Source: an uncultured Muribaculaceae bacterium (GTDB lineage Bacteria; Bacillota_I; Bacilli_A; RF39; UBA660). From it: a stretch of DNA of 64,000 bases. Made by a program: the position numbers and the translations under genes. The stretch covers positions 13,578-77,577 of the forward strand of contig CAZELY010000002.1 in assembly GCA_964513345.1 (NCBI GenBank). Direction: 5' to 3'. Shown in pieces: positions 13,179-41,641 of the stretch; within the stretch, counting starts at the first letter, position 1, and each line of letters begins with the position of its first letter. The notes beneath the pieces were generated by a model. It had not been told where the DNA came from and did no database searches. It was given only the letters and a program-made list of their open reading frames with translations.

Positions 13179-14783
13179 ATGATACTTAGAAAGCCATATG
13201 CATTTTTTATCAAGTACTTTAGAGTCATCAACTTAATTATGGCTGTTTTTATGGCAGTTCTTCTTTATCGCACACTTAAAATTGGGAATTATTTAACAAG
13301 TTATATAAAAGATTACATCATGGCTAGTGATGGATTCGTACTAGGCCAATATGTTAATTTTTATATTTATTTACTCACTTTTTTTGTTATTATTTTGTCA
13401 GTTTCAGTATTGTCAGTAATGATAGTAAAGAAGAAACCAAAGAAATTATATATTTTCAATTTGGCTATGTATATAGTTCTGTTAATCTTGTATATTGTTG
13501 ACTACAACGTCATGTTTGATATTTATGATAAAGTTTTAGATGTTCGTATATCAAAAGCATTGCGTGATGCTAATTACATAATTGTGGCTATGCAGGCTAT
13601 TAGCTTTATCATGACAGTGATAAGAGCTACGGGCTTTGATATCAAAGGTTTTGACTTTAACAAGGATTTACAAGAATTAGAAATTAACGTAAAAGATAAT
13701 GAGGAGTTTGAAGTCGCTGTTGAATTTGATCAAAACAAGCTTAAAAGAGGTTTGAGAAACAAATTCAGACAAGTTAAATATTTCTATTCTGATTATAAAT
13801 TTTTTATAAACATTGCTGCAGCTGCATTAATTGCTATTATAATTTTTAGTGCAATTATTACTGCTAGCATGTATAGCAAAAATTATAGTCAGAACAAGAT
13901 TTTTACTGCTAGCACACTGCAATTTAATATTAGAAATTCATATTTGACAACAACGGATCTATATGGCAAAACCATAGCGGATGATTATACATTAGTAGTT
14001 GTAAATTTTGATGTGCGAAAACTTTCGGATGACAAGAAAAAACTAAACACGGGGCTAATTACATTGAAAGTAGGGAAGAAATCTTATGGTCAAACAACCA
14101 AGTATAATGACTATTTGACTGACATAGGCGTACCTTACACTAATCAGAAACTAAACAATGAATTTGATAATTATATTTTAATCTTTTCAATTCCTAATAC
14201 TGAAGCCAAAAAAACTAAGAGATTGAAAATTAATGACAACATTAGTTATGTTAGGGGTCAAATGGGTGCGAAAAACAATTATGTTAAATTAAAAACAATT
14301 GATCTAACTAAAAAAGAAGATTTGATTCAAAATAAGATAAAAGATGAAGTTAGTTTTTCTGGCAGTTTATTAGGAGAAACCAATTTAACAATAAACAGCT
14401 ACGAAGTGGCCAATAAATTTAAATCTGAATATGAATTTTGCTCAAAAAAAGATAAATGCGTAACCTCTTATGAATATATTACACCGACGGCTACAGGCAA
14501 TTATTTTAAGACCTTACTTAAGCTGGATGGTGAATTTGAAGTGGATGAAAATACAAACTTGGAAATTGGTGATATGTTTTATTTTGTTAATGAATTTGCC
14601 AGTATTTATTATCAAATTGATGGTGTTTGGCATAATCATAAAATCAATTCGCAAAGGATTAAGCCAAAAATGAGCATAAATGATGTTACTTATATAGAAG
14701 TAAACAAAGATGTTGAAAAAGCTGATTCTATTTATTTATTATTTAATGTAAGAAATTATACTTACAAGTATGTTTTGAAATAA
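13179..14783 (+). CDS. membrane protein (about 5 N-terminal TM helices plus a large extracytoplasmic domain), first gene of the accessory cluster
   Basis: 534-aa ORF with an RBS (GGGAAGGGG). An extended -10, TATGATATAAT, lies at 13141-13151. I recognise no catalytic motif. Confidence 0.55.
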   Translation: MILRKPYAFFIKYFRVINLIMAVFMAVLLYRTLKIGNYLTSYIKDYIMASDGFVLGQYVNFYIYLLTFFVIILSVSVLSVMIVKKKPKKLYIFNLAMYIVLLILYIVDYNVMFDIYDKVLDVRISKALRDANYIIVAMQAISFIMTVIRATGFDIKGFDFNKDLQELEINVKDNEEFEVAVEFDQNKLKRGLRNKFRQVKYFYSDYKFFINIAAAALIAIIIFSAIITASMYSKNYSQNKIFTASTLQFNIRNSYLTTTDLYGKTIADDYTLVVVNFDVRKLSDDKKKLNTGLITLKVGKKSYGQTTKYNDYLTDIGVPYTNQKLNNEFDNYILIFSIPNTEAKKTKRLKINDNISYVRGQMGAKNNYVKLKTIDLTKKEDLIQNKIKDEVSFSGSLLGETNLTINSYEVANKFKSEYEFCSKKDKCVTSYEYITPTATGNYFKTLLKLDGEFEVDENTNLEIGDMFYFVNEFASIYYQIDGVWHNHKINSQRIKPKMSINDVTYIEVNKDVEKADSIYLLFNVRNYTYKYVLK

Positions 14784-14815
14784 AAATATGTTATAATAGG
14801 AAAGGAGGCTAAGCC

Positions 14816-15451
14816 TTGAAATCAAAAATTAAATATTTGTTAATAGTGTTGGGGTTTATGCTAACTTTCCCTTTAAATGTACATGCATCATGTGATTATG
14901 AAAGACAAGCTGAGCTTTCTAGAATAGCTTCTAATGTTCAGATAAATTATAGCTATGAAGTTGGCTGGGGTGCTGGTGCATTTTTTACAGCATATATAAC
15001 AAATGTTACTAACGACATATATATTACTGACAATTATGCGCATCGCTTCAGTGGAAATAAAGAGGGTTCTGCTTCTTATTTAGCTGGTAGCAAAGTTGAA
15101 TATACAATATATTCAAATGATAGTTCCTGTTACGGAGAAAAAATTGTAACGCAATATTTAGATATACCACACTATAATTCATATTCACAAAGCGATGATT
15201 GTAAGGAAAATCCGAATTTTAAATATTGTCAATTGTGGGATTATGTAATTGTTGATACGGCACAATTTAAAGAGGAACTAGAAAAATATAAGCAAGCAAA
15301 ACAAAGTGACGAACAAGGCGAAGAAGAAACAATAGGCGTTTTTGAACAAATAAAAAGCTTTATTGTTCAAAACTATGTTTACATTTTAATAGCGGTTGCT
15401 ACCTTAGGCGTTTTCATCATTGGATTTAAAATATATAGGAGGAGGCATTAA
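14816..15451 (+). CDS. secreted/type-I membrane-anchored protein, unknown function (TTG start)
   Basis: AAGGAGG RBS 7 nt upstream of the TTG. Signal peptide ...FPLNVHA/S, an acidic stretch, a C-terminal TM (YVYILIAVATLGVFIIGFKIY) and an RRRH tail. Confidence 0.55.
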   Translation: MKSKIKYLLIVLGFMLTFPLNVHASCDYERQAELSRIASNVQINYSYEVGWGAGAFFTAYITNVTNDIYITDNYAHRFSGNKEGSASYLAGSKVEYTIYSNDSSCYGEKIVTQYLDIPHYNSYSQSDDCKENPNFKYCQLWDYVIVDTAQFKEELEKYKQAKQSDEQGEEETIGVFEQIKSFIVQNYVYILIAVATLGVFIIGFKIYRRRH

Positions 15452-15452
15452 G

Positions 15453-18400
15453 ATGAAATATTTAAAAACTATATTCTTATCATGTTGCTTTTTGCTGCTT
15501 TTCACCATTGGTTCTGGTAATGCAAAAGCATATTGGGTAGAACATTCTGGAGCTGGTTCAACCAGCAGCTCTGGCTGGTCTAGTTATGGTGGCGGTTTTA
15601 GCGCCTATGTGTATGGCGTCAGAGCTACTTTGGTTGATAAGAATGGCGACAGATTAGGGTTTACACTACGAGATGGTCAACAACTTGTTAGTGATAGTAG
15701 AGATTTTTTTGACAAAAATGGTGGCACTAGCTTAAGTTTTTGTCAATCTGATACGCTCTGTGGAATTGATACTTGGAATTTTCATTCTCGTTGTACAAAG
15801 TCAAACGGGGAAAAAACTCTTTGTTACAAAAAGGATACGGCAGGGTCTTCTATGGAATTCGTTAATGATGGTTACTATGATGACCACTGGCACTATATTC
15901 AAAATTGGATGCCTAATTTGTGGATAGGAAATTATATTAAAAGTGGGTTCAGCGTTTCTGGCCAATTTAGCAAATTAGCTGAAGAAAAATATCGTGGTGA
16001 CCTTGAAAGTCTTTTCAAACGATTAATGGGGGAACCTTTGGAAACAATATTGAAGCAAAGTGGCGGGCATTGTAAAGAAAATAAGCAACAATTGGAAGAA
16101 GCATATCTTGTTTATGAAATTTTAACGTTCATGGGTTCTGATTATCCTAGCCCATTTGCTCAATATGATGATCCTAGATATTATGGTTTGGTTGGAACTG
16201 CCTCTGAGTTTTCAACATATTTTCCAAAAACAACCGGCAATCCTTGCTGGGAATGGCTGCCAAATCTAGATAGAGCTTTGTATATACCAATAAATCCTGG
16301 AAGCCTTGGTAATAATTACTTTTATGCACCACCGGAATGGGTGCCATATTCTAATTGTGGTTGGGGGTTTGCTAATGAGGCTGCAGATTCACACAAAGGA
16401 CATTTTATGGGAATTTTACATCTAACCTCATTACCTGAAGCTCACGAGCATGATTGGAGCTGTGATTGGAATTATAACATAGACGCTGCTTGTGATAATG
16501 ACAATTGTGACGCAATAACTAAAGATGGATCTTATTATATTCAGGATACGAACAACTGGGAAGCAATTGAAAAAAGTGTAGAATCTGATCTTCCTAATGT
16601 AAAAAGTTACTATAAAAAGACTTATGGTAATTGTACACTTTTCTGTAGAGAAGAATATAAAATTAAATTTCCAAACAAACAAAACTTTGTAACATTTAAT
16701 AATGAAACGGTTTTTAATGTGTCGACAGGTCGTTATTTTACAATAAATTTACCTGGCCAGCTGGCAGAAAATGGTATAGCTAATTTTGGACCTATATCTA
16801 TTGAAAAAATAAGACAATGTAAAACAACAGGCGATGCTAGCTGCTTGGATAATTTTGCCAAAAACGTTGGTGTAGGGCAAATGGGTACGATTCATTTGGA
16901 TTATAAAGAAACTAAAGGCAAACAATATAGCGTTTCTAAAGATCTTGTCGCCGATGGCAGTCGAACAAAAGTAGAAAAACCTACAAAAAGCAATAATATA
17001 ATTACTATGAAAAAAACCGAATATTATGTTTTGCCGGATAATGTATACCGATATTATAAGAATGGTACAGGAGAACCGGTTAATGGTAATTTTGCTGGCA
17101 ACAACAGCTATCAAGATTATTTGACATCGACTATTCCAGTTTCATTTAATAATACTCCTAGCAAAGGAGACAGACTTGGTGGCAATATAACTCTTACTTA
17201 CAAGATGGCAAGTAATGATTCTTATAGTAAAATGAATAAGGCATTTGCAAATCCCGATTACTTTCAAAATCGTGTAGGGTCTGAAAATGTTTACAAAAAG
17301 TATATTGATAAAAAAATTACAGAAGATGTAGATAAGAACGAGATTGCGAAGAGCTCGTGTGCTAAATTGTATGGCTATAGTGATTCTGCTTCTAGTAAAT
17401 TTTATAAGTGTGCACAATCAAGGCAAACAGATCCTACAAGCGAGTGCTATAAATCAATAACAGGTGCATATGTTTGTAAAGATTATACATGTGACTATGG
17501 TTATCCTGTTTGTCCTGATGGAACTTGCCCAGATAAGGAGGGTATCTGTCTAAATGGAGATAGTTGTACTAATCTAGGTGGAAATAAATGCCTTGTTACA
17601 ACGTGGTCAAACAAATCAGGAACTCAAACAAAAAAAGAGACAACATTTGCTTGTAATGATGATTATATACAAAATAAATACCCTGGGTGCAGTGGGTCAA
17701 CCAAGTGTCGTCTTGATTTGGCGACTAAAAAGTGTATTGTAGGTGGCAAAAAATATAATTGTGATGCAGAAAACAACAATGTAGATTCATACATCAAAAC
17801 AAATTATCCAACGTGTCCAAACACTAAAGGTGATTGCGAAATGGTTAAAACGTCAAAGACAAAGACTGTTAAAATCAATGGTGTAACAAAAACACTACCG
17901 GTATTTGAACATTTTAAAAACGGAAGACCGATTACTGAAGCTATTTATGATACGGACTGCACATGTAAAATATTAAGCAGTGATGAATTTCTTGATAGCA
18001 AGGGTGTATTAATTTATAGTTATAAACAATACCTTAAAGAATGTCAGCCTTGTCAAATAGTTACGACAAGTGACGGTGATTTAATATATTATGATAAAAA
18101 TAGACAAGCAGTTACATATACTGAATTCAAAAAACAATGTGGTAATTGCCCACCACCAGGATGTCCTAATCCTGGCTGTGCACCAGAGGATGAATGCCCT
18201 TGTGAAGGTGATGATTGTATAAATGGTGATCCATGTATTAAGTGTCCTAGTGGAGCATGCCCAATGCCTGGTGGGGTTTGTCCAGGAACAGGAAGGGAGA
18301 TTATTTATCGACCAATAGATTTAGACAATCCATTCCCAGGAATTGGCGGTTCATCTAGCAAGAGCCGTGAAACTGGTACTAACTGGTGTGAAAAAGATTT

Positions 18401-18725
18401 GACGAAAAATGTGTTACATTGTAGTGCTAGCACAAGTACAACACCTAATAAAGGAAATAAAGTTGTTCAAACGCAAATAACAAACAATAGGAAAGTTAAG
18501 ACTTATGAAGTATATACGAGAAGCCCATTGTATGAAGTTACTATTGATGCCAATGCTATCAAAACTATCCAAGACTATAATAAGAAACATCCATATGATG
18601 ATTGGAATATTACTTGTAAGGGAATTTCTGATTGTTCAAGTACCTTCTTGAAAAAGATAGGTGTTACAGGCGATTGCATGAAAAATTCAAAAACTTGTGC
18701 AGAATCAAAAGGGGGCGACGCTTAG
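15453..18725 (+). CDS. giant cysteine-rich secreted protein (about 1090 aa)
   Basis: I prefer the ATG at 15453, preceded by AGGAGGAGG, over the track start at 15420. Signal peptide MKYLKTIFLSCCFLLLFTIGSGNAKA. I hand-count about 55-60 Cys, including CPPPGCPNPGCAPEDECPCEGDDCINGDPCIKCPSGACPMPGGVCPG. Confidence 0.7.
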   Translation: MKYLKTIFLSCCFLLLFTIGSGNAKAYWVEHSGAGSTSSSGWSSYGGGFSAYVYGVRATLVDKNGDRLGFTLRDGQQLVSDSRDFFDKNGGTSLSFCQSDTLCGIDTWNFHSRCTKSNGEKTLCYKKDTAGSSMEFVNDGYYDDHWHYIQNWMPNLWIGNYIKSGFSVSGQFSKLAEEKYRGDLESLFKRLMGEPLETILKQSGGHCKENKQQLEEAYLVYEILTFMGSDYPSPFAQYDDPRYYGLVGTASEFSTYFPKTTGNPCWEWLPNLDRALYIPINPGSLGNNYFYAPPEWVPYSNCGWGFANEAADSHKGHFMGILHLTSLPEAHEHDWSCDWNYNIDAACDNDNCDAITKDGSYYIQDTNNWEAIEKSVESDLPNVKSYYKKTYGNCTLFCREEYKIKFPNKQNFVTFNNETVFNVSTGRYFTINLPGQLAENGIANFGPISIEKIRQCKTTGDASCLDNFAKNVGVGQMGTIHLDYKETKGKQYSVSKDLVADGSRTKVEKPTKSNNIITMKKTEYYVLPDNVYRYYKNGTGEPVNGNFAGNNSYQDYLTSTIPVSFNNTPSKGDRLGGNITLTYKMASNDSYSKMNKAFANPDYFQNRVGSENVYKKYIDKKITEDVDKNEIAKSSCAKLYGYSDSASSKFYKCAQSRQTDPTSECYKSITGAYVCKDYTCDYGYPVCPDGTCPDKEGICLNGDSCTNLGGNKCLVTTWSNKSGTQTKKETTFACNDDYIQNKYPGCSGSTKCRLDLATKKCIVGGKKYNCDAENNNVDSYIKTNYPTCPNTKGDCEMVKTSKTKTVKINGVTKTLPVFEHFKNGRPITEAIYDTDCTCKILSSDEFLDSKGVLIYSYKQYLKECQPCQIVTTSDGDLIYYDKNRQAVTYTEFKKQCGNCPPPGCPNPGCAPEDECPCEGDDCINGDPCIKCPSGACPMPGGVCPGTGREIIYRPIDLDNPFPGIGGSSSKSRETGTNWCEKDLTKNVLHCSASTSTTPNKGNKVVQTQITNNRKVKTYEVYTRSPLYEVTIDANAIKTIQDYNKKHPYDDWNITCKGISDCSSTFLKKIGVTGDCMKNSKTCAESKGGDA

Positions 18726-19148
18726 ATGAATAGAGCAATTTGGGGTGTTTTTGTAATAATGCTTGGAGTCACGGGAATTATTTTCATTACCTTGTTTCAA
18801 ACTATTACAAATAATGATGAACACAATTCACAAAAACTAAAAGAAGTAACTGAGGCTGCCATGTGGGATGCTGTAGATTATACTAAGTATCGTGCAAAAG
18901 GCTTAGTTACAATTAATAAGGAAAAATTTGCTGAAAATTTCATTCGTCGATTTGGTGAGGTTGCCAACAAATCTAATACATATAGAATTAGATTCTATGA
19001 TGTTAATGAAACGCCACCAAAGGTAAGTGTGGAAATCACAAGTACTATTGGTACGGGCTCACTTAGGGCCACAGTTAATGATGATGATATGGTTGATTCT
19101 ATTAGGACTAACCACAGAATAGATGCAATTTTGGAAACACCATATTAA
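18726..19148 (+). CDS. prepilin-like / pseudopilin-like small protein
   Basis: 140 aa. The N-terminus MNRAIWG/VFVIMLGVTGIIFITLF is a short leader ending in Gly followed by a hydrophobic helix. The start abuts the stop of the giant gene. Confidence 0.45.
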   Translation: MNRAIWGVFVIMLGVTGIIFITLFQTITNNDEHNSQKLKEVTEAAMWDAVDYTKYRAKGLVTINKEKFAENFIRRFGEVANKSNTYRIRFYDVNETPPKVSVEITSTIGTGSLRATVNDDDMVDSIRTNHRIDAILETPY

Positions 19149-19172
19149 AGAAATAAAAAGGAGGAAAAAAAT

Positions 19173-20246
19173 ATGAATCAATTTTTAGCTTCGGCGCAAA
19201 GAATAATTCGAAATAAAAATTTCGTAACAATTGTAGGCATAATACTTGTTTTGGCTTTATTATATTGGGGATACAGCAGTCAAATCAATAAAGCCGTTAA
19301 TCCTGTTTCTGTTCCAGTAGCAATAGAAACAATTCAACCACGCACGCAAATTACGGAGGACATGATTGAAATGGTAACTATGCCTGCTATTTCAGTGAGT
19401 GATAACGTTATCAAAAATAAAGACTCAATTATAGGGAAATATACTGCTGTTAACACAGTGGTTCCAGCTGGCAGCATGTTTTATACAGACACAGTCATTG
19501 ATCAAAGTCAATTACCAGATTCTGTATTTGTCAAGGTGAAAAAAGGAGAAGTTGTTTATAATTTCCCAGTTGATATGGAAACAACTTATGGTAATTCAAT
19601 ATATCCAGGAAATAAAATTGACATTTACATGAAAACTGGTGATGGTTCTGCAGAAAAAGTCATGCTTGGTAAATTGGTTGAAAATGTTGAAGTTTTGGCT
19701 GTAAAAGATTCTGCTGGTAGAGATGTGTTTGAAAATAGTAGTGAATCAAGAACTCCAGATATGATTATATTTGGTGTTCCGGAAGAAATAGGTTTATTAC
19801 TTAGAAAAGCATCTTATATGTCCGCTATTGGTGTTGAATTATTCCCAGTGCCACATGGCGGTAGCGTATCTACTGTTGGTGCTACGGAAGTTTCTACACA
19901 ACAACTTGCAGATTATATTGAGGCTCATGCTGTAAATATTCCAATTCCGAAAAAAGAAACTACTGATGAATTGTTACCAACATTTACACAAAAGAACAAT
20001 ACTGTAACTATTACATTCCCTAAAGGTTGCGGAACTAAATATACATGTACCTATTCTAAAGATGGAGCTTTACCAATAACTGTAACAAAAGCAACTCAAA
20101 AAGTTAATTTTACAGCAACTGGCAAATTAACAGCTACGTTAAAAGAAAAAGATGGTACAGAGCATATAGCTAACCAAGATGTTAAAATCGAAGCTAGTCA
20201 ATCAACTAATTCAACTACAAATCAAACTCAAAATGCAGGTGCATAA
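19173..20246 (+). CDS. cpaB: Flp/Tad pilus assembly protein CpaB/RcpC-like (SAF domain)
   Basis: N-terminal TM, a SAF-like segment (VPVAIETIQPRTQITEDMIEMVTMP...VVPAGSMFYTDTVI) and an RcpC-like segment (GNSIYPGNKIDIYM...VENVEVLAV...LLLRKASYM). A Thr-rich C-terminal extension follows. Confidence 0.7.
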   Translation: MNQFLASAQRIIRNKNFVTIVGIILVLALLYWGYSSQINKAVNPVSVPVAIETIQPRTQITEDMIEMVTMPAISVSDNVIKNKDSIIGKYTAVNTVVPAGSMFYTDTVIDQSQLPDSVFVKVKKGEVVYNFPVDMETTYGNSIYPGNKIDIYMKTGDGSAEKVMLGKLVENVEVLAVKDSAGRDVFENSSESRTPDMIIFGVPEEIGLLLRKASYMSAIGVELFPVPHGGSVSTVGATEVSTQQLADYIEAHAVNIPIPKKETTDELLPTFTQKNNTVTITFPKGCGTKYTCTYSKDGALPITVTKATQKVNFTATGKLTATLKEKDGTEHIANQDVKIEASQSTNSTTNQTQNAGA

Positions 20247-20248
20247 TT

Positions 20249-21562
20249 ATGCATGAGAGCATGTTTGAGCAGATTGATTTTGGCCCGTTAAAAGAGTTTT
20301 TAGAAAATGACGACATAACCGATATTTCATATGATAATGGTGGACAAATTCATTTAAAAACGTTATCTAGAGGTATTTATCGAATTGAAAAACCAGAAAT
20401 AAACAATGCTTTTATGGAAAAATTAGCCTTTCAGTGTTCAAATGTTATGGGTAAGACATTTAACATGGCTCATCCATTTCTGGATGCTGAAAGCGCAGAA
20501 CTCCGTTTAAATTTTGTTCATGATTCAATTGCTACAAATGGCATTGCATGCGTTATTCGTAAAACACCAGCCAAAATCAGATTACAAAAAGAAAAAATAA
20601 TAGCTGAAAAGTATATTGAGCCTGATATTCATGATTTCCTTGAATACTGTGTCAAAGGACACTGTAATATAATTGCTTGTGGTGAAACGGGCTCAGGTAA
20701 AACCGAATTAGTTAAATATTTGGCTTCTAAAATAGCAGAAGATGAGAAAATAATTACAATAGAAGATACATTGGAGCTTCACTTAGATAGAATTTTTCCA
20801 CACAGGGATATTGTTTCTATGAAAACTAATAATATTGCTTCGTATAGTGATGTATTAGTAACTTGTATGCGACAAAATCCGAAATGGATTTTACTATCAG
20901 AAGTTCGTAGTGCTGAAGCGGTTCTAGCCGTAAGAAATTCAATTTCTTCTGGTCACTATATCTTATCAACAATTCATGCCGATAAAGCCTCTTCAATACC
21001 AAATCGTATGTATAGTTTGCTTGAAACTAGTCAAAATATCGAACAATTTTTGAAAACAATTCATCGATATGTTCAAATTGGTATATATGTAAGAGGTTAT
21101 ACCGATAAAGCAACTCACAATTTTGTTCGTGAGATTGCCGAAGTTACCGAGTTTTATGTTGATGAAAATAATGAAGCTAAGAGTAATACTATATATAGAA
21201 AAACGGCCAATGGGACTGTTAATAGAAAAAATCCTTCTAAATATTTAGTTGATTATTTAGAAGTTCAAGGTGTGTATTTACCGAAGGAAATGCTTTTGTT
21301 AGGAGAAAATGTTCCATTATCAGAGGCTGAAGGAAAAATAAAGGAAAACAGTAATGGAAGAATTCCAATTATTGATACTTCAGCTGGAACAAAAACGTTA
21401 GAACCGGCTTCTTCACAAGTAAAGGTAGAAACTCCACAACCGCCGGTTGTAGGATCTAAACCTGAACCTAAGGTAGTACCTGAACAGCCAGTGCCAATTG
21501 TAAAAGTAGCACAACCTGTTCAGATGCCTGTAGGACAAGCTCCTATAGTAAATAATGAATAA
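20249..21562 (+). CDS. cpaF: CpaF/TadA-type secretion ATPase (VirB11/T2SE superfamily) with Pro-rich C-terminal tail
   Basis: Walker A CGETGSGKTE, Asp box ITIEDTLELHL, Walker B region RQNPKWILLSEVR and His box GHYILSTIHA. The tail is VETPQPPVVGSKPEPKVVPEQPVPIVKVAQPVQMPVGQAP. Confidence 0.8.
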   Translation: MHESMFEQIDFGPLKEFLENDDITDISYDNGGQIHLKTLSRGIYRIEKPEINNAFMEKLAFQCSNVMGKTFNMAHPFLDAESAELRLNFVHDSIATNGIACVIRKTPAKIRLQKEKIIAEKYIEPDIHDFLEYCVKGHCNIIACGETGSGKTELVKYLASKIAEDEKIITIEDTLELHLDRIFPHRDIVSMKTNNIASYSDVLVTCMRQNPKWILLSEVRSAEAVLAVRNSISSGHYILSTIHADKASSIPNRMYSLLETSQNIEQFLKTIHRYVQIGIYVRGYTDKATHNFVREIAEVTEFYVDENNEAKSNTIYRKTANGTVNRKNPSKYLVDYLEVQGVYLPKEMLLLGENVPLSEAEGKIKENSNGRIPIIDTSAGTKTLEPASSQVKVETPQPPVVGSKPEPKVVPEQPVPIVKVAQPVQMPVGQAPIVNNE

Positions 21563-34471: not shown

Positions 34472-35143
34472 ATGTGGGGTAAAATAGCATCAGTAGCTAA
34501 AAAATTCGCAGTTGATAAAGCAAAAAATGCAGTTAAAGATAAAGCAATAGAAGAAGCCAATACAAAAGGTATAGGCAAGGTTTTAGCAACCATGGGAATG
34601 GCTGGAGTTGCCGCTGTTGCTGTTGTTCCAATTGCTGTGATTTTGCTTTTAATTGCCCCGCTTCTTGTTATTCATCAATCTTTTAGCTCAATTTTTATTA
34701 TCCAAGGATTAGATAAAGCTTATGCTGATACGGGGAAAAGTGCGTCAGTTTCATCGGCTTCTTCAGTAGTAGAATGTGCAAAAGAACAGATAGGAAAACC
34801 TTATATTTGGGGTGCCGAAGGACCTGATTCTTTTGATTGTTCAGGGTTAGTTACTTATTGCTATAGAGAAGCGTTAGGTGTTAATGTACCACACCAAACA
34901 GGCTCAATTTACACAAGCCCATTATTTGAACAAGTCACTTTTTCTGAACTTGCTGCTGGCGATTTAATTCAATTTGGCGGATCTAATCTAACAGGTCACG
35001 TAGGCATTTATACTGGTGAAAACACGGTTATTGAAGCTCCTGGGTGGATTGTGCCAGGTTGGGGTAATAATGTAGTAGAAACACCCGTTGAAAATTTTAC
35101 TAATAGTAATGCGGGACCATATTATTTAAAATATGTTGGATAA
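34472..35143 (+). CDS. membrane-anchored NlpC/P60 peptidoglycan endopeptidase
   Basis: TM helix followed by GKPYIWGAEGPDSFDCSGLV (catalytic Cys) and GHVGIYTGENTVIEAP (His). Confidence 0.8.
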   Translation: MWGKIASVAKKFAVDKAKNAVKDKAIEEANTKGIGKVLATMGMAGVAAVAVVPIAVILLLIAPLLVIHQSFSSIFIIQGLDKAYADTGKSASVSSASSVVECAKEQIGKPYIWGAEGPDSFDCSGLVTYCYREALGVNVPHQTGSIYTSPLFEQVTFSELAAGDLIQFGGSNLTGHVGIYTGENTVIEAPGWIVPGWGNNVVETPVENFTNSNAGPYYLKYVG

Positions 35144-35158
35144 AATGGGGTGTCTTAT

Positions 35159-35836
35159 ATGAAACGAATATTTTTAATAGCACTTTTGTTTGTTATTACA
35201 GGATGCACTGTTGATTATGATTTAAATATTGATAGTGATTATATAGATGAAAAAGCAAATATCAATTTATTGGATGATGATTTTTCTGATTCCGCTGAAG
35301 TTGAAGAACAGTTAGATTACAAAAAAAGAGTTTATAATGATAATAATTTTTATTACAACAACAAAGTATTAGCAACAGCTGATGGTTATGAGGCTACATA
35401 TAGTTACAAGCATGACGTTGATAACTATGGTCAATCGTCATTTGTTGAAAAATGCTATGGCCAAAAAACTATTACAACTACAGATGATTTAATTAAGATA
35501 AATACTAATCCAGTATTCTATTGTCTAATTATGGAAGATGGATTTTATGCTGATGCAGTAGATATAAATATTACTACGCAATTAAAAGTTCAAGACCATA
35601 ATGCTGATGAAGTAATTGGCAATACATATAAATGGCACATTGATGAAAGCAATTATCAAAACAAACCAATAAACATGGTTTTGAAAAAAGATAAAACGGC
35701 ACAAGAAATTGCACAAAATATTGTTGATAAAATACCAAATAAAGAAATAATATATGTTTGTTTATTTATATTGCTAATGACAGTAATTATTTATGTGTTT
35801 GTAAAGCATAGACAAAAAATTAAGAATGAAATTTAA
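35159..35836 (+). CDS. lipoprotein with C-terminal TM, unknown function
   Basis: I prefer the ATG at 35159. Lipobox MKRIFLIALLFVITG/C and a C-terminal helix IIYVCLFILLMTVIIYVFV. Confidence 0.55.
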   Translation: MKRIFLIALLFVITGCTVDYDLNIDSDYIDEKANINLLDDDFSDSAEVEEQLDYKKRVYNDNNFYYNNKVLATADGYEATYSYKHDVDNYGQSSFVEKCYGQKTITTTDDLIKINTNPVFYCLIMEDGFYADAVDINITTQLKVQDHNADEVIGNTYKWHIDESNYQNKPINMVLKKDKTAQEIAQNIVDKIPNKEIIYVCLFILLMTVIIYVFVKHRQKIKNEI

Positions 35837-35850
35837 AGGCGGTGATAAAA

Positions 35851-37833
35851 ATGAAAACAAAAAAATTTAAGCTTTTTGTTTTTATCATGGCTTTTTTTAT
35901 TATGGTAACATTTTCGATATTAATATCGAAAGTTGAAGCTTCTTCAGATTGTCCAATTTGTACAGGCGATAAATCAACTTATCCAATGGAAAAACAATTT
36001 TATGAAAGAATTCAAGCTTTAAAAGATAAGTATGGCAAAAATAAAATTGATGAAATCGCGTTAGCTGCTACTGTTTTACATCGAGAAAATTTTAATCAGG
36101 CTGCAAGAGCAAGGTACAATAAAGACTATAGCAGAAGTAGTTTTTCATCAGCTTTTTCTGCTGCTGAATCAGGCGAAGTATCAGACAATAAGGAAGAAAG
36201 CGAAAAACTTGGATTAACCGAAACTCAAGTTGACAAGCTTACAGCAGCTGCCATAATTATGGCGGCCTCAGCTGGTAGTGGCAGCTATAACGAAGATAAA
36301 TATAAAGAAGCTTTGGCTAACGAAAATTTCTTTGGCGATCATGAAAATATATTGTGCGGAGTTGCAGCACTTCACGGGTTATTTAGTGGTGAAAGCGACA
36401 GCGATTCCGAGGAAGCTATTAAGTGGACTAATCGTGAAAACATTTGTAAATATGGTTATGTTGGAACGGTATATAATTTAACTGAAATCGAAGATGATGA
36501 TGTAAGACACATCAGAGAAGAACGATCAGCACAAGAAATAATTGATTTTATTCATTATTACTATAAATTAACAAATAAAAAAAGGGACATGTGTGCAATA
36601 GCGACATCAGGTGATTTTGCCACTTGGAAACAATATGGCGAAACTTGGAGTTCTGTCATTATGGGCGGTGGAGGTTCAATTGCTAAATATGGTTGCTATG
36701 TCACATCAATAGCGATTCAAGCGGCTCGTTCTGGAACTGCGGTTGTTGATTTACCTAGTGGTTATGATAGCTTTAATCCAGGGGCCTTTGTTACATCTCT
36801 AAATCAAAATGGGGGCCTTGATGATAATTCTAATTTTACTGGCACTGGCTTTCAAAAAATCATCCCAAATTGGAAGTTACAAGGTAATTATTCCCTGGGA
36901 ACAGGCAGCAAATCAGTTTTAGCAAAAAAATTATCTGATGTACTATCTACAGGTGTTCCTGGTGATGGTGGTAAAGAATATCAAAAATTTCTTGTCTTAC
37001 AAATTCACCATTATAATAGCGATCAGCATTGGGTTGCTGTTGATTCAGTGACTGGTAATGAGGTAACAATTTTTGATCCAGGAGCTCAGGGTAATACTTT
37101 AGATGATAATTATAGTGGATGGTATGTCGATTCATATTCAGTTTTCTATGCAACAGACATTGAATTTGGGAAGACAGGAACATCAACGTCTGGACTTGCA
37201 AGTTGCGGTGCAGGCACTTTAGAGGACCTGATGACATTTATTAATAACTTTGAAGGTGGTACAACTTGTAACGATGGTACTGGTTATACTACTTCGACGT
37301 TACCAAATGATCCAGGAGGATTGACAGCATCAAATGGTGTTACGTTAGGAACAGCAAAATATTATCAAAGTGCGGCTGGTATTTCCGATATTGAAAGTGA
37401 ATATGCTACAGGATGTCCAAATAAAGAAAAGATGGATAAAATTAAAATGGCAATATTACAATCGATGTATGATGAAGTTGGTGCCAGCGCAGAAGAAAAA
37501 GGAGTTACATTAAGTGAACAAGAACATTTAGCACTTACTAGTGTTCGCTATGGTGGATATGGTATGGACAGGGATATTATGGATCAAATAAAGCAATTCG
37601 GTCATGATAGTTATGAAGTTTTCCACTGTTTTGTATCATTAGGCTGTGGCTTTGGTAATGCTTCATATATGGATGGACTTGCTAATAGACGTGCAGGTGA
37701 ATATGAGTTATTCAGAACCGGTAATACTAATGTACACAACGTTGGTAAAGGTTATAGTTATTATCAAGCAATTACAAATAAAGCACAGTTAGAACATTAC
37801 ATGCAAACAGATTGGCCAACTGGAAGTGCATAG
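35851..37833 (+). CDS. secreted multidomain cell-wall hydrolase candidate (papain-like Cys peptidase plus lysozyme-like C-terminal domain)
   Basis: I prefer the ATG at 35851. It has a signal peptide. The Cys-His-Asp arrangement is AKYGCYVTSIA ... DQHWVAVDS ... IFDPG (C39-like/CHAP-like). The C-terminal FINNFEGGTTCNDGTGYTT resembles a lysozyme catalytic-Glu region. Confidence 0.5.
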   Translation: MKTKKFKLFVFIMAFFIMVTFSILISKVEASSDCPICTGDKSTYPMEKQFYERIQALKDKYGKNKIDEIALAATVLHRENFNQAARARYNKDYSRSSFSSAFSAAESGEVSDNKEESEKLGLTETQVDKLTAAAIIMAASAGSGSYNEDKYKEALANENFFGDHENILCGVAALHGLFSGESDSDSEEAIKWTNRENICKYGYVGTVYNLTEIEDDDVRHIREERSAQEIIDFIHYYYKLTNKKRDMCAIATSGDFATWKQYGETWSSVIMGGGGSIAKYGCYVTSIAIQAARSGTAVVDLPSGYDSFNPGAFVTSLNQNGGLDDNSNFTGTGFQKIIPNWKLQGNYSLGTGSKSVLAKKLSDVLSTGVPGDGGKEYQKFLVLQIHHYNSDQHWVAVDSVTGNEVTIFDPGAQGNTLDDNYSGWYVDSYSVFYATDIEFGKTGTSTSGLASCGAGTLEDLMTFINNFEGGTTCNDGTGYTTSTLPNDPGGLTASNGVTLGTAKYYQSAAGISDIESEYATGCPNKEKMDKIKMAILQSMYDEVGASAEEKGVTLSEQEHLALTSVRYGGYGMDRDIMDQIKQFGHDSYEVFHCFVSLGCGFGNASYMDGLANRRAGEYELFRTGNTNVHNVGKGYSYYQAITNKAQLEHYMQTDWPTGSA

Positions 37834-37834
37834 A

Positions 37835-37862
37835 AAAACATTCTAATTTATTAGAATGTTTT
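37835..37862. terminator. bidirectional terminator between convergent genes
   Basis: A perfect 12-bp stem, AAAACATTCTAA (37835-37846) with TTAGAATGTTTT (37851-37862), and a 4-nt loop. An A-run lies upstream and a T-run downstream. Confidence 0.75.
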
Positions 37863-38414
37863 TTATATTTTTTTTGACTTTTTAGTGGTAAATAAATTAT
37901 TTATTTTTGCTTTTTTTATAATATTATTTATTTCACCCGAAAATACAATTGCTTCTTCTTTGATCCGCGGGCACATCAATTTATAATCGCCCTTTGCTTT
38001 AAGTATTTTGCAATCAAAAGTTTTAGTTTTAATATTGTATGTTGCACTTTGAGAAATTGCATAATAGTTTGGTGAAAAGCTTTCTGAATAATATGAAATT
38101 TCGACGTCGTTTGTGCCGTCATATTTTAAAATAATAGTTTCATATATATTTTTTATATTTTTTGTAAACTTGTTTGCTTTAATTGAAAAAATATAGTTAA
38201 TAGTTGAATTCATGTCACCACTTTCAGTTACAGTTTTATAAAATACACCATTTTTATTTTTATATTCATGTTTTTGCAAATAATTTTCAAGTCTATTTTC
38301 ATTAGAGCTTTTTCCAATTACAAAAATTAACAAAATAGTAGCAATTAAAATTATGCTGCAAATAAAAACCCATTTAAATTTTTTAATCACATTAAATACA
38401 CCTGTGTCTTCCAC
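37863..38414 (-). CDS. bitopic membrane protein (N-terminal TM plus a domain of about 150 aa), only minus-strand gene in the cluster
   Basis: 183-aa ORF with TM WVFICSIILIATILLIFVI. Its size and topology are compatible with a VirB8/NTF2-like component, but no motif supports that. Confidence 0.45.
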   Translation of the reverse strand: MEDTGVFNVIKKFKWVFICSIILIATILLIFVIGKSSNENRLENYLQKHEYKNKNGVFYKTVTESGDMNSTINYIFSIKANKFTKNIKNIYETIILKYDGTNDVEISYYSESFSPNYYAISQSATYNIKTKTFDCKILKAKGDYKLMCPRIKEEAIVFSGEINNIIKKAKINNLFTTKKSKKI

Positions 38415-38531
38415 TTTACCACCTTCTATTTTAAATTATATCAATAACAAAAATATTATGCAATAAAAAACAAAAAAATAATTGACTATTGATTTTTAAC
38501 TTTATATAATGATAATAGGAGGCTGGATAAT

Positions 38532-39311
38532 ATGGATGGTGAAAGAGAAAAGACTATCAAACTGCTAGTTTGGTCGGCTATTATTTTCATAATTATAATT
38601 TTTGCTGCAGTAGTATATAATATTTTTATCAAAGATGATGGGGCAAAAACATCAGACAAATATATTCTTTTTGGAAATTATTTAATTTTGCAAAAAACAA
38701 ATTTTTCGTATCAACAAATAAAAACTCTGGATGATAAAATTTTACAGTATGATTATATTGTTACAGATGGTAAAAATACAAGAAACGATGTAAAAATACA
38801 ATTTTTAAATAACAAGTGGTATTTATTTGATAAAGAATATAATGAAATTAAGATGAATACTATGCGAATGGCTACCCATAATTTTAAAGCAACGCTTGTA
38901 AATTATTTGAGAAATACACATATCATGGCTTCTGATGATCAACGTATTCATGAATTTTTAGAGAATGATTCTGCAAGAAAGCCAGATAGTTATTTTTTCA
39001 CTAAAATATCTACAGACTTAGATAATGATGGCCAAGAAGAAAATCTTTATACACTAAATAATAATTCACTGGCTGCAGTCAATTATCCAGTTAAAGGATT
39101 TCTATTGATGGAAAAAGATAGTAATCTAATAAAAATTGCTGAAGCTGAAAATCAACCATTCACAATTATGGAGATAGTTGATTTGGAAAGTGATGGTACT
39201 TATGAAATGATTGTTAATAAAGGTGATGTTGATCTTAAATCATTTGATAGCTGCTATCAAATATATAGTTTTAAAGACGGAAAATTTGAATTAGTAAAAG
39301 ATTGTAAGTAA
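38532..39311 (+). CDS. bitopic membrane protein with DxDxDG-type (FG-GAP/VCBS-like) motifs
   Basis: A TTGACT-17-TATAAT promoter lies upstream. It has an N-terminal TM and the motifs DLDNDGQEEN and DLESDGTYEM. Confidence 0.45.
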   Translation: MDGEREKTIKLLVWSAIIFIIIIFAAVVYNIFIKDDGAKTSDKYILFGNYLILQKTNFSYQQIKTLDDKILQYDYIVTDGKNTRNDVKIQFLNNKWYLFDKEYNEIKMNTMRMATHNFKATLVNYLRNTHIMASDDQRIHEFLENDSARKPDSYFFTKISTDLDNDGQEENLYTLNNNSLAAVNYPVKGFLLMEKDSNLIKIAEAENQPFTIMEIVDLESDGTYEMIVNKGDVDLKSFDSCYQIYSFKDGKFELVKDCK

Positions 39312-39373
39312 TATTTTAAATATTACTTTTTTGTGCTATAATATGGTTGTTGTTGATAAAAAGGAGAATTAGT

Positions 39374-41641
39374 ATGAAATTAAAATTTACAGCTGACTCA
39401 AAAGATTGGATGATGTTCGGTATATATGCCGTTGTTTTATTATATTTTGTAGCAATCGCAGTTTTAAATATTGCCCAATTTGCGGCTGGTGATATAGATC
39501 ATCCATTCCATGGATTAAATCCATTTCCAGCGTTTTCTAAAAACTTTATTGCAACCACAATTATTTTATATATAATTGCACTAGTTGCGAGTCTTTTAAG
39601 TGTTTCCGATAGGTTTTTTGATATGGAAACTGGTATTGGTTTTTCTTCTAAAAAGAAAAAAGAAAAAGGTTATTCTAAATGGTTAGATGCTAGAGAATTA
39701 AAAAAAGATCGTGGTGTTGCCATGAGTTTGATAAATTCTGAAACTAGCGAAGCCGGTGGATTACCACTTTTCTACGAAGGTAAGAAAGTATGGGTTGATA
39801 ATGGCGAAGGACATACAATGATTATGGGTTCTTCTGGATCTGGTAAAACCCAAATGATTGCTTTCCCAATGGTTAAGAATTTAGCAAAACATGATGAATC
39901 TATGATTATAACTGACCCTAAGGGTGAAATTTATGAAGGCACTCATAAAATGCTTGAAGAAAGAGGTTATAATGTTGTTCTTTTAAATTTCCGTAATCCA
40001 CAAAATGGTAGTGGTTGGAATCCACTACATCTTCCTTACCAGTACTATAAAAATGGTAATATCGATAAAGCTAACGAATTAGTTGATGACTTAGGTGTTA
40101 ATATTATTTATGAAGAAAACGCTCAAAACCAAGACCCATTCTGGGAAAAAACTTCAGCTAACTACTTTGCGGGATTATGTTTAGCGTTATTTGAAGATGC
40201 TAAAGAAGAAGAAATAAATAAAAATATTATAAATATGTTTACACCAATTGGTGAAGAAATAGCAGGTCCAAACACAACTTATGTTAATGAATACTTTAAA
40301 ACCAAAGACCAAAACTCTTCAGCTTATGTATCAGCATCATCAACACTAATTGCGCCTAATGATACAAAAGGTAGTATTTTATCTGTCTTTAAAGAAAAAT
40401 TAAGACTATTTGCTTCACGTGAAAACATGTCAGAAATGCTTTCACATAGTGATTTCGAATTTGAAGATATTGGTAAAAAGAAAACAGCAGTATTTATTAT
40501 CATTCAAGATGAAAAAACAACATATCACTCATTAGTTACAATATTTATTAAACAATGTTATGAAACATTAATTGACTATGCTCAAAAATGCGGTGGAAAA
40601 CTTCCATATAGAACTAACTTTATTCTAGATGAGTTTGCCAATATGCCGCCACTTAAGGACGTAGAAACAATGGTATCAGCAGCGAGAAGCCGTAATATGA
40701 GATTTACTTTCATTATTCAAAACTTCGCGCAATTATCTGGTAAATATGGTAAAGATACAGCCGATACAATTAGAGGTAACTGTACTAATACGATATACTT
40801 AATTTCAACAGAACTTGCTGCCTTAGAAGAAATCAGCAAACTATGTGGGGAAATTAAAGTAAAAAGTGGCAAAGGTGAAAAAGAAAAAGAAGAAACAAGG
40901 CCACTTGTTACAGTTAGTGATTTACAAAAAATGCCGTTTGGTGAAATAATATTGCTTCGTCAAAGGCTAGATCCATTTAAAACAAAATTGAGGTTTGATT
41001 ATGAAATGAATTGGCCAGATTTATTTAAAAATCAAGATTCTAAAGATGCCGTTTACCCACATCGTGAAAAAGAACCAGTTCATATATTTGATTTAAAAGC
41101 TTACGTTAATAAGAAAAAAGAAGAAAAAATTCAAGAATTAATCAGCAACGGCATGAATAAACCAAACTCACCAGGTCTTCCTAATATTCCAGGCTTGCCA
41201 ACAGCAAAACCAAAGGGTTTGAATGTCAATGATTTGGTTCAACGTATTGATAAGCGTTTAGCAGAATTAGAAGAGGAAGAAAAGAAAGAAAAAGAAAACT
41301 TAAATATCAAGGCTAAAGGTGGTGCTTCTAAAGAGCCGACTATATCTTCAGCAACAACAGTAGATGAAATTCAAAAACAAATAACTGATGAACAAATTGA
41401 TAATAAGATTGCTGGAGAACCTGTAGTACAAAAACCAGTTGTTCCAGCCAAACCTAGAAGCGAAAGAAAGATAAATAAAACAGATTTAGCTGCTAAGATT
41501 ACTAGTAGAGTTAATGAGACTGCTAAACCAAAGCCAGATTTATTGAAGCCAATGGAACCATCTGAAGTGGAAAAGCCACAAAATGACTATGTCACCGATG
41601 ATCAATTCTTTGATGATTTCTTTGCTGACGATGATGAATAA
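39374..41641 (+). CDS. virD4: VirD4/TraG-type type IV coupling protein
   Basis: I prefer the ATG at 39374 (AAGGAG RBS). Two N-terminal TMs, Walker A GSSGSGKTQ and Walker B FILDEFANMP. A long low-complexity C-terminal extension ends DDQFFDDFFADDDE. Confidence 0.8.
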   Translation: MKLKFTADSKDWMMFGIYAVVLLYFVAIAVLNIAQFAAGDIDHPFHGLNPFPAFSKNFIATTIILYIIALVASLLSVSDRFFDMETGIGFSSKKKKEKGYSKWLDARELKKDRGVAMSLINSETSEAGGLPLFYEGKKVWVDNGEGHTMIMGSSGSGKTQMIAFPMVKNLAKHDESMIITDPKGEIYEGTHKMLEERGYNVVLLNFRNPQNGSGWNPLHLPYQYYKNGNIDKANELVDDLGVNIIYEENAQNQDPFWEKTSANYFAGLCLALFEDAKEEEINKNIINMFTPIGEEIAGPNTTYVNEYFKTKDQNSSAYVSASSTLIAPNDTKGSILSVFKEKLRLFASRENMSEMLSHSDFEFEDIGKKKTAVFIIIQDEKTTYHSLVTIFIKQCYETLIDYAQKCGGKLPYRTNFILDEFANMPPLKDVETMVSAARSRNMRFTFIIQNFAQLSGKYGKDTADTIRGNCTNTIYLISTELAALEEISKLCGEIKVKSGKGEKEKEETRPLVTVSDLQKMPFGEIILLRQRLDPFKTKLRFDYEMNWPDLFKNQDSKDAVYPHREKEPVHIFDLKAYVNKKKEEKIQELISNGMNKPNSPGLPNIPGLPTAKPKGLNVNDLVQRIDKRLAELEEEEKKEKENLNIKAKGGASKEPTISSATTVDEIQKQITDEQIDNKIAGEPVVQKPVVPAKPRSERKINKTDLAAKITSRVNETAKPKPDLLKPMEPSEVEKPQNDYVTDDQFFDDFFADDDE

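Follow-up and report, generated by a model that had tools for sequence, protein, structure and literature searches.

The window analysed here, the whole stretch of 64,000 nucleotides from an uncultured bacterium assigned by GTDB to RF39 (assembly GCA_964513345.1, contig CAZELY010000002.1, positions 13,578 to 77,577), carries at 13179-41641 a block of genes in which a Tad-like pilus operon is joined to a type IV secretion system (T4SS) of the Gram-positive type. The block is probably a vertically inherited, domesticated contact-dependent transfer machine of the RF39 cell envelope and not an integrated conjugative element, and would represent a case of monoderm T4SS domestication, the system having pilin paralogues and being coupled here to a Tad-like operon. 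This view builds on the list of parts, their linkage, their conservation and the absence of local mobility genes, from which the steps of a mechanism are extrapolated. The block holds 27 open reading frames (ORFs) of at least 60 amino acids (aa), 26 of them on the + strand and the sole - ORF at 37863-38414, in agreement with the same-strand run reported in a preliminary description of this DNA.

Every protein of the window was mapped onto 160 related loci, and the counts given below refer to 82, 57, 55, 31 or 28 loci. In a scan of one genome per species, relatives of the VirB4 ATPase of the block were identified in at least 561 genomes, the best 80 being 75-90% identical, and gut-metagenome contigs match the window itself. 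The VirB4-bearing relatives are deposited as uncultured Bacilli/Tenericutes bacterium, Acholeplasma sp. CAG:878 and similar, with proteins of Firmicutes bacterium CAG:822 likewise among the relatives; GTDB places the CAG:878 and CAG:822 genera in the order RF39, family CAG-822 (PMC8035907). Two relatives with closed chromosomes have 1.52 and 1.54 Mb. The conserved order runs from ORF1 and ORF2 through the slot of a variable giant protein to a DUF5411 protein, CpaB, CpaF and two membrane proteins, then a pilin, two minor pilins, a TadZ-like protein, two VirB2-like proteins and variable fusion paralogues, followed by VirB6, VirB3, TrsD, VirB4, hydrolases, a lipoprotein, further genes and VirD4, and extends into a 3' flank of rhodanese, rmuC, DUF2238 and rnr. 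The linkage of the parts was as follows:

Tad-like genes preceding the T4SS: 54 of 57 species loci
T4SS genes following CpaF: 29 of 31 loci
VirD4 present: 53 of 55 loci
Rhodanese or rmuC downstream: 49 of 55 loci
ORF1 upstream: 27 of the 28 loci with sufficient upstream sequence

The block occupies the same site in at least 49 of 55 species, and an accidental adjacency of the two modules, which the preliminary description had left to be checked by synteny, is rejected by these counts. Compared within the same loci, VirB4 and CpaF reach median identities to the window of 79% and 78%, as against 74% for RmuC and 57% for RNase R. The ratio of nonsynonymous to synonymous divergence (dN/dS) of VirB4 and CpaF is 0.05-0.1, with dS above 1 and the synonymous sites saturated; the locus is under strong purifying selection. 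The surface-exposed parts, i.e. the giant protein and the ectodomain fusions described below, are hypervariable, and the fusions also vary in copy number, as is expected of contact organelles.

The first unit, the Tad-like module (13179-25573), has the following parts:

13179-14783, + strand: ORF1, first gene of the block, a 534-aa membrane protein with five N-terminal transmembrane (TM) segments and a large extracytoplasmic domain
14816-15451, + strand: ORF2, 211 aa, with a signal peptide, four Cys and a C-terminal TM anchor
15420-18725, + strand: giant secreted Cys-rich protein with a signal peptide and 54 Cys, about 1090 aa long if read from the likely start at 15453
18726-19148, + strand: DUF5411 protein (PF17424, E 2.5e-47) with a short M-K-E-x-x-W-G leader and an N-terminal TM segment, minor-pilin-like by comparison of the leaders
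19173-20246, + strand: CpaB/RcpC-like bitopic protein (PF16976, 32.5 bits, above the gathering threshold (GA) of 28.8)
20249-21562, + strand: secretion ATPase of the CpaF/TadA-VirB11 family (T2SSE, E 4e-28), with Walker A GETGSGKT and a Pro-rich C-terminal tail
21575-22477, + strand: first platform-position protein ('TadB' position), 300 aa, with N-terminal TM segments, a helical cytoplasmic domain and two C-terminal TM segments
22477-23274, + strand: second platform-position protein ('TadC' position), polytopic, 265 aa
23329-23511, + strand: Flp-like small pilin, 60 aa, with an MKEA(A/S)G-EAN(M/L)TV leader in the alignment, a hydrophobic helix and a Cys-paired C-terminal part
23534-24560, + strand: two paralogous minor-pilin-like proteins of 165 and 170 aa with M(K/R)E-x-I-G/A leaders
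24572-25573, + strand: TadZ-like protein with a receiver-like N-domain and a ParA/MinD-fold C-domain carrying a degenerate Walker A, DGAGATT (AlphaFold2 (AF2) model and Foldseek)

A CpaF/TadA-type ATPase as well as RcpC/CpaB- and TadZ/CpaE-like components are thus present. The best PDB matches of the ATPase are the CpaF entries 8rkd and 9e24 (E about 3e-18), Caulobacter CpaF outranking the archaeal GspE/FlaI and VirB11; every NCBIfam equivalog cutoff was missed by it. Across the lineage it is 66-85% identical, with a dN/dS of about 0.1. Its tail is of low complexity and rich in Pro and Val, metagenome matches mostly end at about residues 344-400 of the 437-aa query, and the tail is apparently less conserved than the rest. 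The CpaB/RcpC-like protein scores 45 bits with TIGR03177, below the cutoff. The TadZ-like protein has no hidden Markov model (HMM) match, and a profile search of the PDB sequences with it was empty; its AF2 model (predicted local distance difference test, pLDDT, of 73, about 90 in the C-domain) retrieves HypB, ParA and MinD in Foldseek at E about 1e-5 and the two-domain structure 3fkq, which we take to be TadZ, at E 9.5e-6, with low TM-scores. Among the Tad names given previously, CpaB and CpaF are therefore borne out by HMMs and TadZ by its fold only, and those of TadB, TadC and the prepilins found no HMM. Three of the 'four prepilins' do lie between 'TadC' and 'TadZ', the fourth being the DUF5411 protein further upstream.

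No relevant Pfam or NCBIfam match to TadB, TadC, TadE, TadZ or Flp was obtained with the proteins of the window or with 68 homologues from the lineage. The first platform-position protein is conserved at 60-89%; a profile search of the PDB sequences with it was empty, its AF2 model has a pLDDT of 52 (from an alignment at least 78% identical) and Foldseek gave nothing significant, OutF appearing at rank 21 with E 9. The second one aligns with the gene-39 family of plasmid pLS20 (hhalign probability 76%, E 2.4e-5). No PF00482/T2SSF match was found for either in the window or in 20 relatives, topology alone fitting TadB/TadC, and hhalign detected no similarity between the two families, which are thus not detectable paralogues. 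The Flp-like pilin family ranges from 56 to 88 aa with an invariant MKEA(A/S)G-EAN leader. The two minor-pilin-like families are related to each other (hhalign probability 100%) and have no TadE match in Pfam. All four small families have in common an M-K/R-E-x-x-G/A leader followed by a hydrophobic helix.

The giant protein confirms the Cys-rich secreted giant of about 1090 aa described earlier. It is recognisable in the closest relatives alone (29-34% identity), a similar-sized gene keeping the slot elsewhere, and matched neither Pfam nor the PDB sequences in a profile search; it is a candidate adhesin. ORF2 is 23-48% identical among the relatives. ORF1 has no Pfam or NCBIfam match, and its family shows the invariant motifs MILRKPYAFFIK and RATGFDIKxFDFxxDL in the alignment. 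The GFDIK of ORF1 faintly resembles the GxGDxK of A24 prepilin peptidases. ORF1 was considered as the missing prepilin peptidase and rejected as unsupported, since it has no A24 match and both invariant Asp residues flank the same TM helix.

The second unit, the T4SS module (about 25689-41641), comprises:

25626-26500, + strand: two short VirB2-like hairpin proteins of the T4SS_pilin type (PF18895, E 2.9e-5)
26583-29561, + strand: three paralogues, each composed of a signal peptide, an ectodomain that is variable and rich in Cys, and a conserved VirB2-like hairpin at the C-terminus
29579-31807, + strand: polytopic VirB6-like channel protein of 742 aa whose C-terminal part is long and hydrophilic (NF045848, E 3.9e-7)
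31825-32139, + strand: PrgI/VirB3-like protein with two TM segments (PF26592 PrgI_like, weak, precomputed), in 79 of 82 loci
32117-32668, + strand: TrsD/TraC-like protein, counterpart of the N-terminal domain of VirB4 (PF26593 TraC-like, precomputed)
32668-34452, + strand: VirB4 ATPase, 594 aa (P-loop_TraG, AAA_10)
34472-35143, + strand: membrane-anchored NlpC/P60 peptidoglycan endopeptidase, functional analogue of VirB1 (PF00877, E 1e-18)
35150-35836, + strand: lipoprotein with lipobox ITGC and a C-terminal TM segment, conserved in 59 loci
35842-37833, + strand: secreted hydrolase-like protein, 663 aa
37863-38414, - strand: bitopic 183-aa protein, the only gene on the opposite strand, its place and orientation conserved
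38532-39311, + strand: bitopic 259-aa protein
39347-41641, + strand: VirD4 coupling protein with two TM segments, Walker A GSSGSGKT and a long low-complexity acidic tail

These parts (VirB4, VirB6 with VirB3/PrgI, VirD4 and a wall hydrolase) are those of a Gram-positive T4SS of the MPF_FATA class, and the names previously given to the five VirB2-like proteins, VirB6, PrgI/VirB3, VirB4, NlpC/P60 and VirD4 are supported by HMMs, partly via members of their families. The PF18895 score in the window protein (24.5 bits) is below GA, and 11 family members match. The first VirB2-like gene probably starts at 25689 and not at 25626, as judged from the gene call in the related contig L001. The three ectodomain-hairpin paralogues have a common 3' module of 251 nucleotides (74-88% identity) and match weakly Mbov_0396/MMCAP2_0566 of integrative and conjugative elements (ICEs) of Mycoplasma. 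Two near-identical contigs, L001 and L002, which both encode the identical 594-aa VirB4, have five and four VirB2-like genes, respectively; such differences among the paralogues suggest cassette-like gain and loss or gene conversion. TrbL_4 was found in 7 of 10 members of the VirB6-like family, for which the Mycoplasma MMCAP2_0566 family is a further match.

VirB4 matches NF045975 (E 1e-104) and NF045971 (E 5e-50), and the 183-aa TrsD-like protein, found in 80 of 82 loci, aligns to positions 96-276 of NF045975. The two genes are translationally coupled by a TAATG overlap, both occur in essentially all 82 loci and, among the matches listed, 120 of 120 VirB4 homologues are exactly 594 aa long and at least 84% identical. 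The 'split VirB4' reported earlier is therefore, judging from the sequences, no lesion and is replaced by a conserved TrsD+VirB4 architecture, which has been described for pGO1-type and Patescibacteria systems (PMC12102498); the conjugative elements outside the lineage that are discussed below likewise carry a protein of 200-230 aa followed by a VirB4 of 606-620 aa. The relatives of the 663-aa protein have a Peptidase_C39_2 domain, some together with SpoIID, M23, CHAP or amidase domains, so that the peptidase/lysozyme-like hydrolase noted after the lipoprotein is C39-like by the domains of its relatives; a profile search of the PDB sequences with the protein was empty. The 259-aa bitopic protein possibly has a VirB8-like role, for which the gene product of 37863-38414 is also a candidate. 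VirD4 matches PF02534 (202 bits, E 1.6e-59) and NF045973 conju_CD1115 (321 bits, cutoff 250). The VirD4 tail is rich in Lys, Glu and Pro and ends with DDFFADDDE. The claim of three secretion ATPases holds as to their presence; they form the classical VirB4/VirB11/VirD4 trio.

As the preliminary description had proposed, no relaxase, Rep or tyrosine, serine or DDE recombinase domain was found among the ORFs scanned across the 64 kb, and no relaxase or recombinase recurs among the mobility families in the 160 related loci. Among 91 representatives of those ORFs in these loci that lack a homologue in the window, not all singletons of which were inspected, only wall-hydrolase, Transpeptidase and HD families recur. 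G+C content is 27-38% throughout the window with no shift at the block, as described before for the block and its flanks, and the borders share A/T-rich 11-12-mers only, no repeat exceeding 12 nucleotides. The features that define a conjugative element, namely a relaxase or oriT, a recombinase, att repeats, a patchy distribution and a contrast in composition, were thus not found, the search for a relaxase and a recombinase covering the 64 kb and the related loci.

Outside the lineage, the nearest VirB4 proteins with a genomic context are 31-36% identical and lie in classical mobile elements: an element of Thomasclavelia ramosa (VirB4 36%) with a single-stranded DNA-binding protein, a Toprim primase, a serine recombinase and sortase pili, and two metagenomic contigs (31-33%) with a MobL relaxase, VirD4 and ArdC-type proteins. 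These have no T2SS-E ATPase within 10 kb of VirB4 and no Tad module. The T4SS core of RF39 would therefore descend from conjugative elements and have become fixed in the lineage. Sister VirB4 clusters at 40-43% identity sit on contigs of just 2-6 kb, and the nearest named relatives belong to Thomasclavelia/Coprobacillus, Solobacterium (Erysipelotrichales) and a plasmid of Mycoplasmatota.

In the mechanism proposed, the first unit would build a Tad-like fibre or pseudopilus, short and with a variable adhesin. The CpaF-type ATPase, placed by the TadZ-like ParA-fold protein, would power the two polytopic platform proteins to assemble the Flp-like pilin and the three minor-pilin-like proteins, with the CpaB-like protein crossing the wall and the hypervariable Cys-rich giant serving as the adhesin. 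The second unit would build a wall-spanning channel of the Gram-positive T4SS type, in which VirB6, VirB3 and TrsD with VirB4 would form the channel and motor, the NlpC/P60 and C39-type hydrolases would open the wall and the five VirB2-like membrane hairpins, three of them displaying variable ectodomains, would be added. VirD4 would select the cytoplasmic substrate and both units together would contact another cell and export a macromolecule into it; export into the contacted cell appears likelier than uptake because VirD4 feeds a substrate from the cytoplasm.

DNA is the favoured substrate, in a chromosomal exchange without a linked relaxase that would resemble the chromosomal transfer of Mycoplasma; protein delivery or a parasitic role of the Patescibacteria kind is a close second. 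The Mycoplasma ICE has been described as a minimal T4SS moving chromosomal DNA (PMC12857230). Models of these elements, whose conjugation module comprises CDS5/13/15/16/17, are the best NCBIfam matches of the window proteins, namely NF045975 for VirB4, NF045848 for the VirB6-like protein and NF045889/NF045849 for the hairpins, but all scores are below the cutoffs (e.g. 351 as against 590 bits for VirB4). Unlike the RF39 block, the Mycoplasma ICEs are mobile, carry no wall hydrolases and no Tad module and have a fused VirB3/B4-type ATPase of about 890 aa, where the window has 183 + 594 aa. We know of no canonical relaxase described for them.

Several observations weigh against a coupled transfer machine. 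The platform, minor-pilin and Flp-like labels are drawn from topology and leader motifs, with neither HMM nor structural support. The Flp-like pilin has no E+5/Y+6, no class III signal with G/xxxxEY and no Flp match in Pfam, and no A24 prepilin peptidase (TadV/CpaA) was found among the ORFs scanned in the 64 kb. The two modules are apart in 3/57 and 2/31 loci (about 6%), and the terminator-like hairpin between them implies that they may act independently; functional independence is accordingly possible. The absence of a relaxase holds for the 64 kb, and the rest of the genome of about 1.5 Mb could still encode one. Finally, VirD4 is part of the operon in RF39 but usually neither linked nor essential in Patescibacteria, making the analogy with that phylum imperfect.

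The closest functional analogue nevertheless appears to be the relaxase-less chromosomal T4SS of Patescibacteria, which carries peptidase and lysozyme genes downstream and is essential for the epibiotic growth of Southlakia (PMC12102498; PMC10633639). Both systems are chromosomal, derived from MPF_FATA and distributed lineage-wide in monoderms with small genomes (PMC10633639, PMC12102498), and both have a cluster of divergent VirB2-like (PF18895) paralogues, PrgI/VirB3, VirB6, a TrsD-like gene before VirB4, peptidase-type hydrolases downstream of virB4 and no relaxase nearby. The RF39 system differs in its host, which belongs to another phylum (Bacillota), in its three pilin paralogues fused to large Cys-rich ectodomains and in the physical attachment of a Tad-like operon, the type IVa pilus loci of Saccharibacteria being separate. 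A review considers Patescibacteria unique among monoderms in having chromosomal T4SSs with VirB2-like pilins (PMC12857230), and this design would also exist in a Bacillota lineage, with a Tad-like operon and VirD4 attached.

These likenesses give some weight to a Patescibacteria-like lifestyle, in which the Tad-like fibre would attach RF39 to bacteria or host cells and the T4SS would deliver effectors or extract nutrients, its substrate being protein; we regard it as a possibility, clearly behind the transfer machine proposed above. The part list is that of the essential Saccharibacteria T4SS, the core parts are strongly conserved while the surface parts are hypervariable, and RF39 genomes are reduced with numerous auxotrophies (PMC12306168, citing Nayfach 2019), for which the T4SS would compensate. 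However, the tight linkage of VirD4 is not usual in Patescibacteria, the nearest named VirB4 relatives are in elements of Erysipelotrichales and Mycoplasmatota and not in Patescibacteria, no effector candidates were identified and nothing in the literature searched shows RF39 to be epibiotic. A related and still more tentative idea is that RF39, which is among the most prevalent uncultured lineages of the gut, depends on cell-cell contact, with a near-essential Tad-T4SS organelle for attachment to a partner and exchange of macromolecules. If true, this organelle would be a Bacillota counterpart of the epibiotic T4SS of Patescibacteria with an independent origin, derived from a conjugation machine that was coupled to a Tad-type pilus before its domestication, and the dependence on contact would explain the resistance of RF39 to axenic culture.

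Plasmids provide parallels to the pairing of the two modules. The preliminary description took it that characterised Gram-positive T4SSs are not known to have a CpaF/TadBC pilus machine; this premise is incorrect, since plasmids of the pLS20 family and of the pAW63 type carry a VirB11/CpaF-family ATPase beside such a T4SS (PMC8557374, PMC9673590), and tblastn located 'CpaF/VirB11 family' genes on many plasmids of Bacillus, Enterococcus and Lactococcus. The interpretation of a composite apparatus in that description is supported in part, the modules being joined, co-inherited and chromosomal. The ATPase of the window is 31.6% identical to the 'CpaF/VirB11' protein of pZB18. Downstream of the ATPase, pZB18 and pBamB1895 encode two membrane proteins that match the window pair in size and topology, then small proteins with an N-terminal TM segment, a hairpin protein with two TM segments and VirD4 (CD1115 family), with VirB6, a VirB3-like protein, VirB4 and a wall hydrolase also present. 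The pLS20 gene-39 family is weakly homologous to the second membrane protein of the window, the first aligning without significance. The pLS20, pZB18 and pAW63 types differ from the RF39 block in being plasmids with MOBP relaxases and regulation modules, in the order of VirD4 relative to VirB4 and in having no CpaB/RcpC, TadZ-like protein, pilin-ectodomain fusions or Cys-rich giant. The sub-cluster of the pLS20 family (gene 36, VirB11 and genes 38-41; pZB18, pBamB1895) is laid out as a minimal Tad-like module. A TrbC/VirB2 gene is annotated in pZB18, whereas the pLS20 paper denies any VirB2 homologue in the family.

The zrk4 plasmid of Mycoplasmatota (CP074574.1, 97.9 kb) is the best plasmid match of VirB4 (30%) and carries TrsD-like and VirB4 proteins together with SAF/CpaB, an AAA ATPase, CpaF, T2SS-F, four small proteins and a giant protein of 1650 aa; no relaxase or VirD4 is annotated in it. 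It differs from the RF39 block in being plasmid-borne, in its reversed order of modules (T4SS, Tad, giant), in its platform protein, which unlike that of the window is recognisable as T2SS-F, and in its ATPase, which is less similar to that of the window than the pZB18 protein is. The platform-position proteins gave hhalign probabilities of at most 10.8% with their zrk4 counterparts and 0.5-0.6% with the annotated T2SS-F. Possibly, the zrk4 plasmid is a mobile element related to the RF39 composite, and its gene content suggests that the pairing of T4SS and Tad predates RF39 and exists on replicons. It was typed as 'non-mobilizable' and also carries ParM, a topoisomerase and a primase.

Established Tad (type IVc) systems, such as Caulobacter Cpa and Aggregatibacter Tad, resemble the first unit in the CpaF-type ATPase, the RcpC/CpaB domain, the TadZ-like two-domain ParA-fold protein, a small pilin whose short leader terminates in Gly, two membrane proteins in the platform position and two or three minor-pilin-like proteins. 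The RF39 locus differs from them in having no HMM match to T2SS-F, TadE or Flp, no G/xxxxEY and no local prepilin peptidase, as well as no secretin, which is expected of a monoderm. In PAPI-1 and IncI R64, a pilus of the type IV class cooperates with VirB4/VirD4 in transfer (PMC12857230), but these are Gram-negative mobile elements with type IVb pili that encode relaxases. To the pairing of T4SS and Tad known from plasmids, RF39 contributes its fixation in the chromosome, parts resembling CpaB and TadZ, fusions of pilins with ectodomains and conservation across the lineage.

It follows a weaker line to regard the modules as two independent systems that are adjacent by shared ancestry, i.e. a Tad-like pilus for adhesion or biofilm formation and a remnant or repurposed T4SS, and we consider this unlikely. 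A terminator-like hairpin and a new promoter do separate the modules, a few loci have one module without the other and the T4SSs outside the lineage have no Tad module; but the linkage is kept in about 94% of the species despite saturated synonymous divergence, the zrk4 plasmid carries the same pairing together with a giant protein, the homologous sub-cluster of ATPase and membrane proteins in the pLS20 family belongs to a conjugation operon, and a hairpin comparable to the one between the modules was found in just 18 of 92 relatives by a crude scan, so that its conservation cannot be claimed.

Tad-dependent transformation in Micrococcus, ComB in Helicobacter and the gonococcal genetic island are the comparisons for a machine of DNA uptake (competence) or DNA release, which we regard as improbable in RF39. 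The missing linked relaxase, the affiliation of the ATPase to a family of retractile-type pili and the possible dependence of small genomes on nucleotide scavenging are in its favour. VirD4 is however conserved, and a review lists uptake among the functions of VirD4-less T4SSs (PMC12857230); in addition, no ComEC, ComEA or DprA was found in the window and there is no evidence for a retraction ATPase. An ordinary ICE with its integrase, relaxase or oriT just outside the window or too divergent is largely refuted and highly improbable, for although real ICEs have a T4SS core of this type (VirB6-VirB3-TrsD-VirB4-hydrolase, VirD4) and a transfer-messenger RNA (tmRNA) gene followed by two ORFs without assignment lies 5 kb downstream, the block is separated from that gene by rhodanese, rmuC, rnr and smpB, which are syntenic in the relatives, no recognisable genes for DNA processing or integration occur in the window or recur in the neighbourhoods of the relatives, borders and composition are unremarkable and the site is shared by at least 561 species with saturated dS.

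RF39 is widespread in human and animal guts with a genome of about 1.5 Mb and was represented, among the data retrieved, by uncultured metagenome-assembled genomes alone. The 28-kb machine occupies about 2% of this genome and is conserved as tightly as housekeeping genes, and is therefore likely to be central to RF39 biology. Its conserved ATPases as targets of inhibition and its variable adhesins for finding partners would provide handles to distinguish a contact lifestyle from chromosomal "sex", or to recognise both. In pLS20-type plasmids, the unexplained sub-cluster of VirB11 and two membrane proteins may, by this comparison, represent a cryptic module for Tad-like assembly. No paper linking RF39 to T4SS, pili or conjugation and no description of a CpaF+VirB4 composite in Gram-positives were found in the literature searched, which is suggestive and not proof of novelty.

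The limits of the two units were read in the sequence, the terminator and promoter between them having been noted before:

About 13079-13110, + strand: terminator hairpin and T-run of nrdG, the upstream boundary of the block
About 13112-13155, + strand: promoter-like TTGCAA...TGATATAAT after the nrdG hairpin
25573-25602, + strand: terminator-like AT-rich hairpin and T-run between the modules
25633-25661, + strand: promoter-like TTGACA-17-TATCAT after this hairpin
41642-41668, + strand: terminator hairpin and T-run after virD4, the downstream boundary of the block
46659-47017: tmRNA gene, 5 kb downstream of the block

Variation in the architecture of the block was observed in some related loci. 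In L016, L019 and L031, grpE-dnaK-dnaJ or other housekeeping genes precede the T4SS operon without a Tad-like operon, and in L106 and L133 no T4SS genes follow the Tad-like operon, so that uncoupling of the modules is possible. In L147 and L162 the Tad-like order is rearranged to DUF5411, minor pilins, CpaB, CpaF, platform proteins and TadZ-like protein, with the small pilin gene upstream of ORF1 in L162 and no small pilin detected in L147.

The flanks are made up of core genes, as stated earlier for nrdDG on one side and rhodanese, rmuC, rnr, smpB and tmRNA on the other. Upstream lie RNase P RNA, recA, a sortase with a surface protein, rny, nrdD and nrdG, and downstream rhodanese, a helix-turn-helix protein, rmuC, DUF2238, rnr, smpB, tmRNA, polC and polA. 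The cumulative GC skew rises steadily along the 64 kb, the + strand of which carries most ORFs. The tmRNA encodes the tag peptide GNTDKSSLGKLAFA. Genes for tmRNA are a classic integration hotspot, and directly 3' of this one, at 47174-49398, are ORFs of 644 and 96 aa with no Pfam match and a 34-aa match to NF038105 only. The recA-rny interval (5189-8005) encodes the sortase, a 212-aa protein and a 479-aa protein with an antigen I/II C2 domain, and would give this small genome a second surface adhesin system, dependent on sortase.

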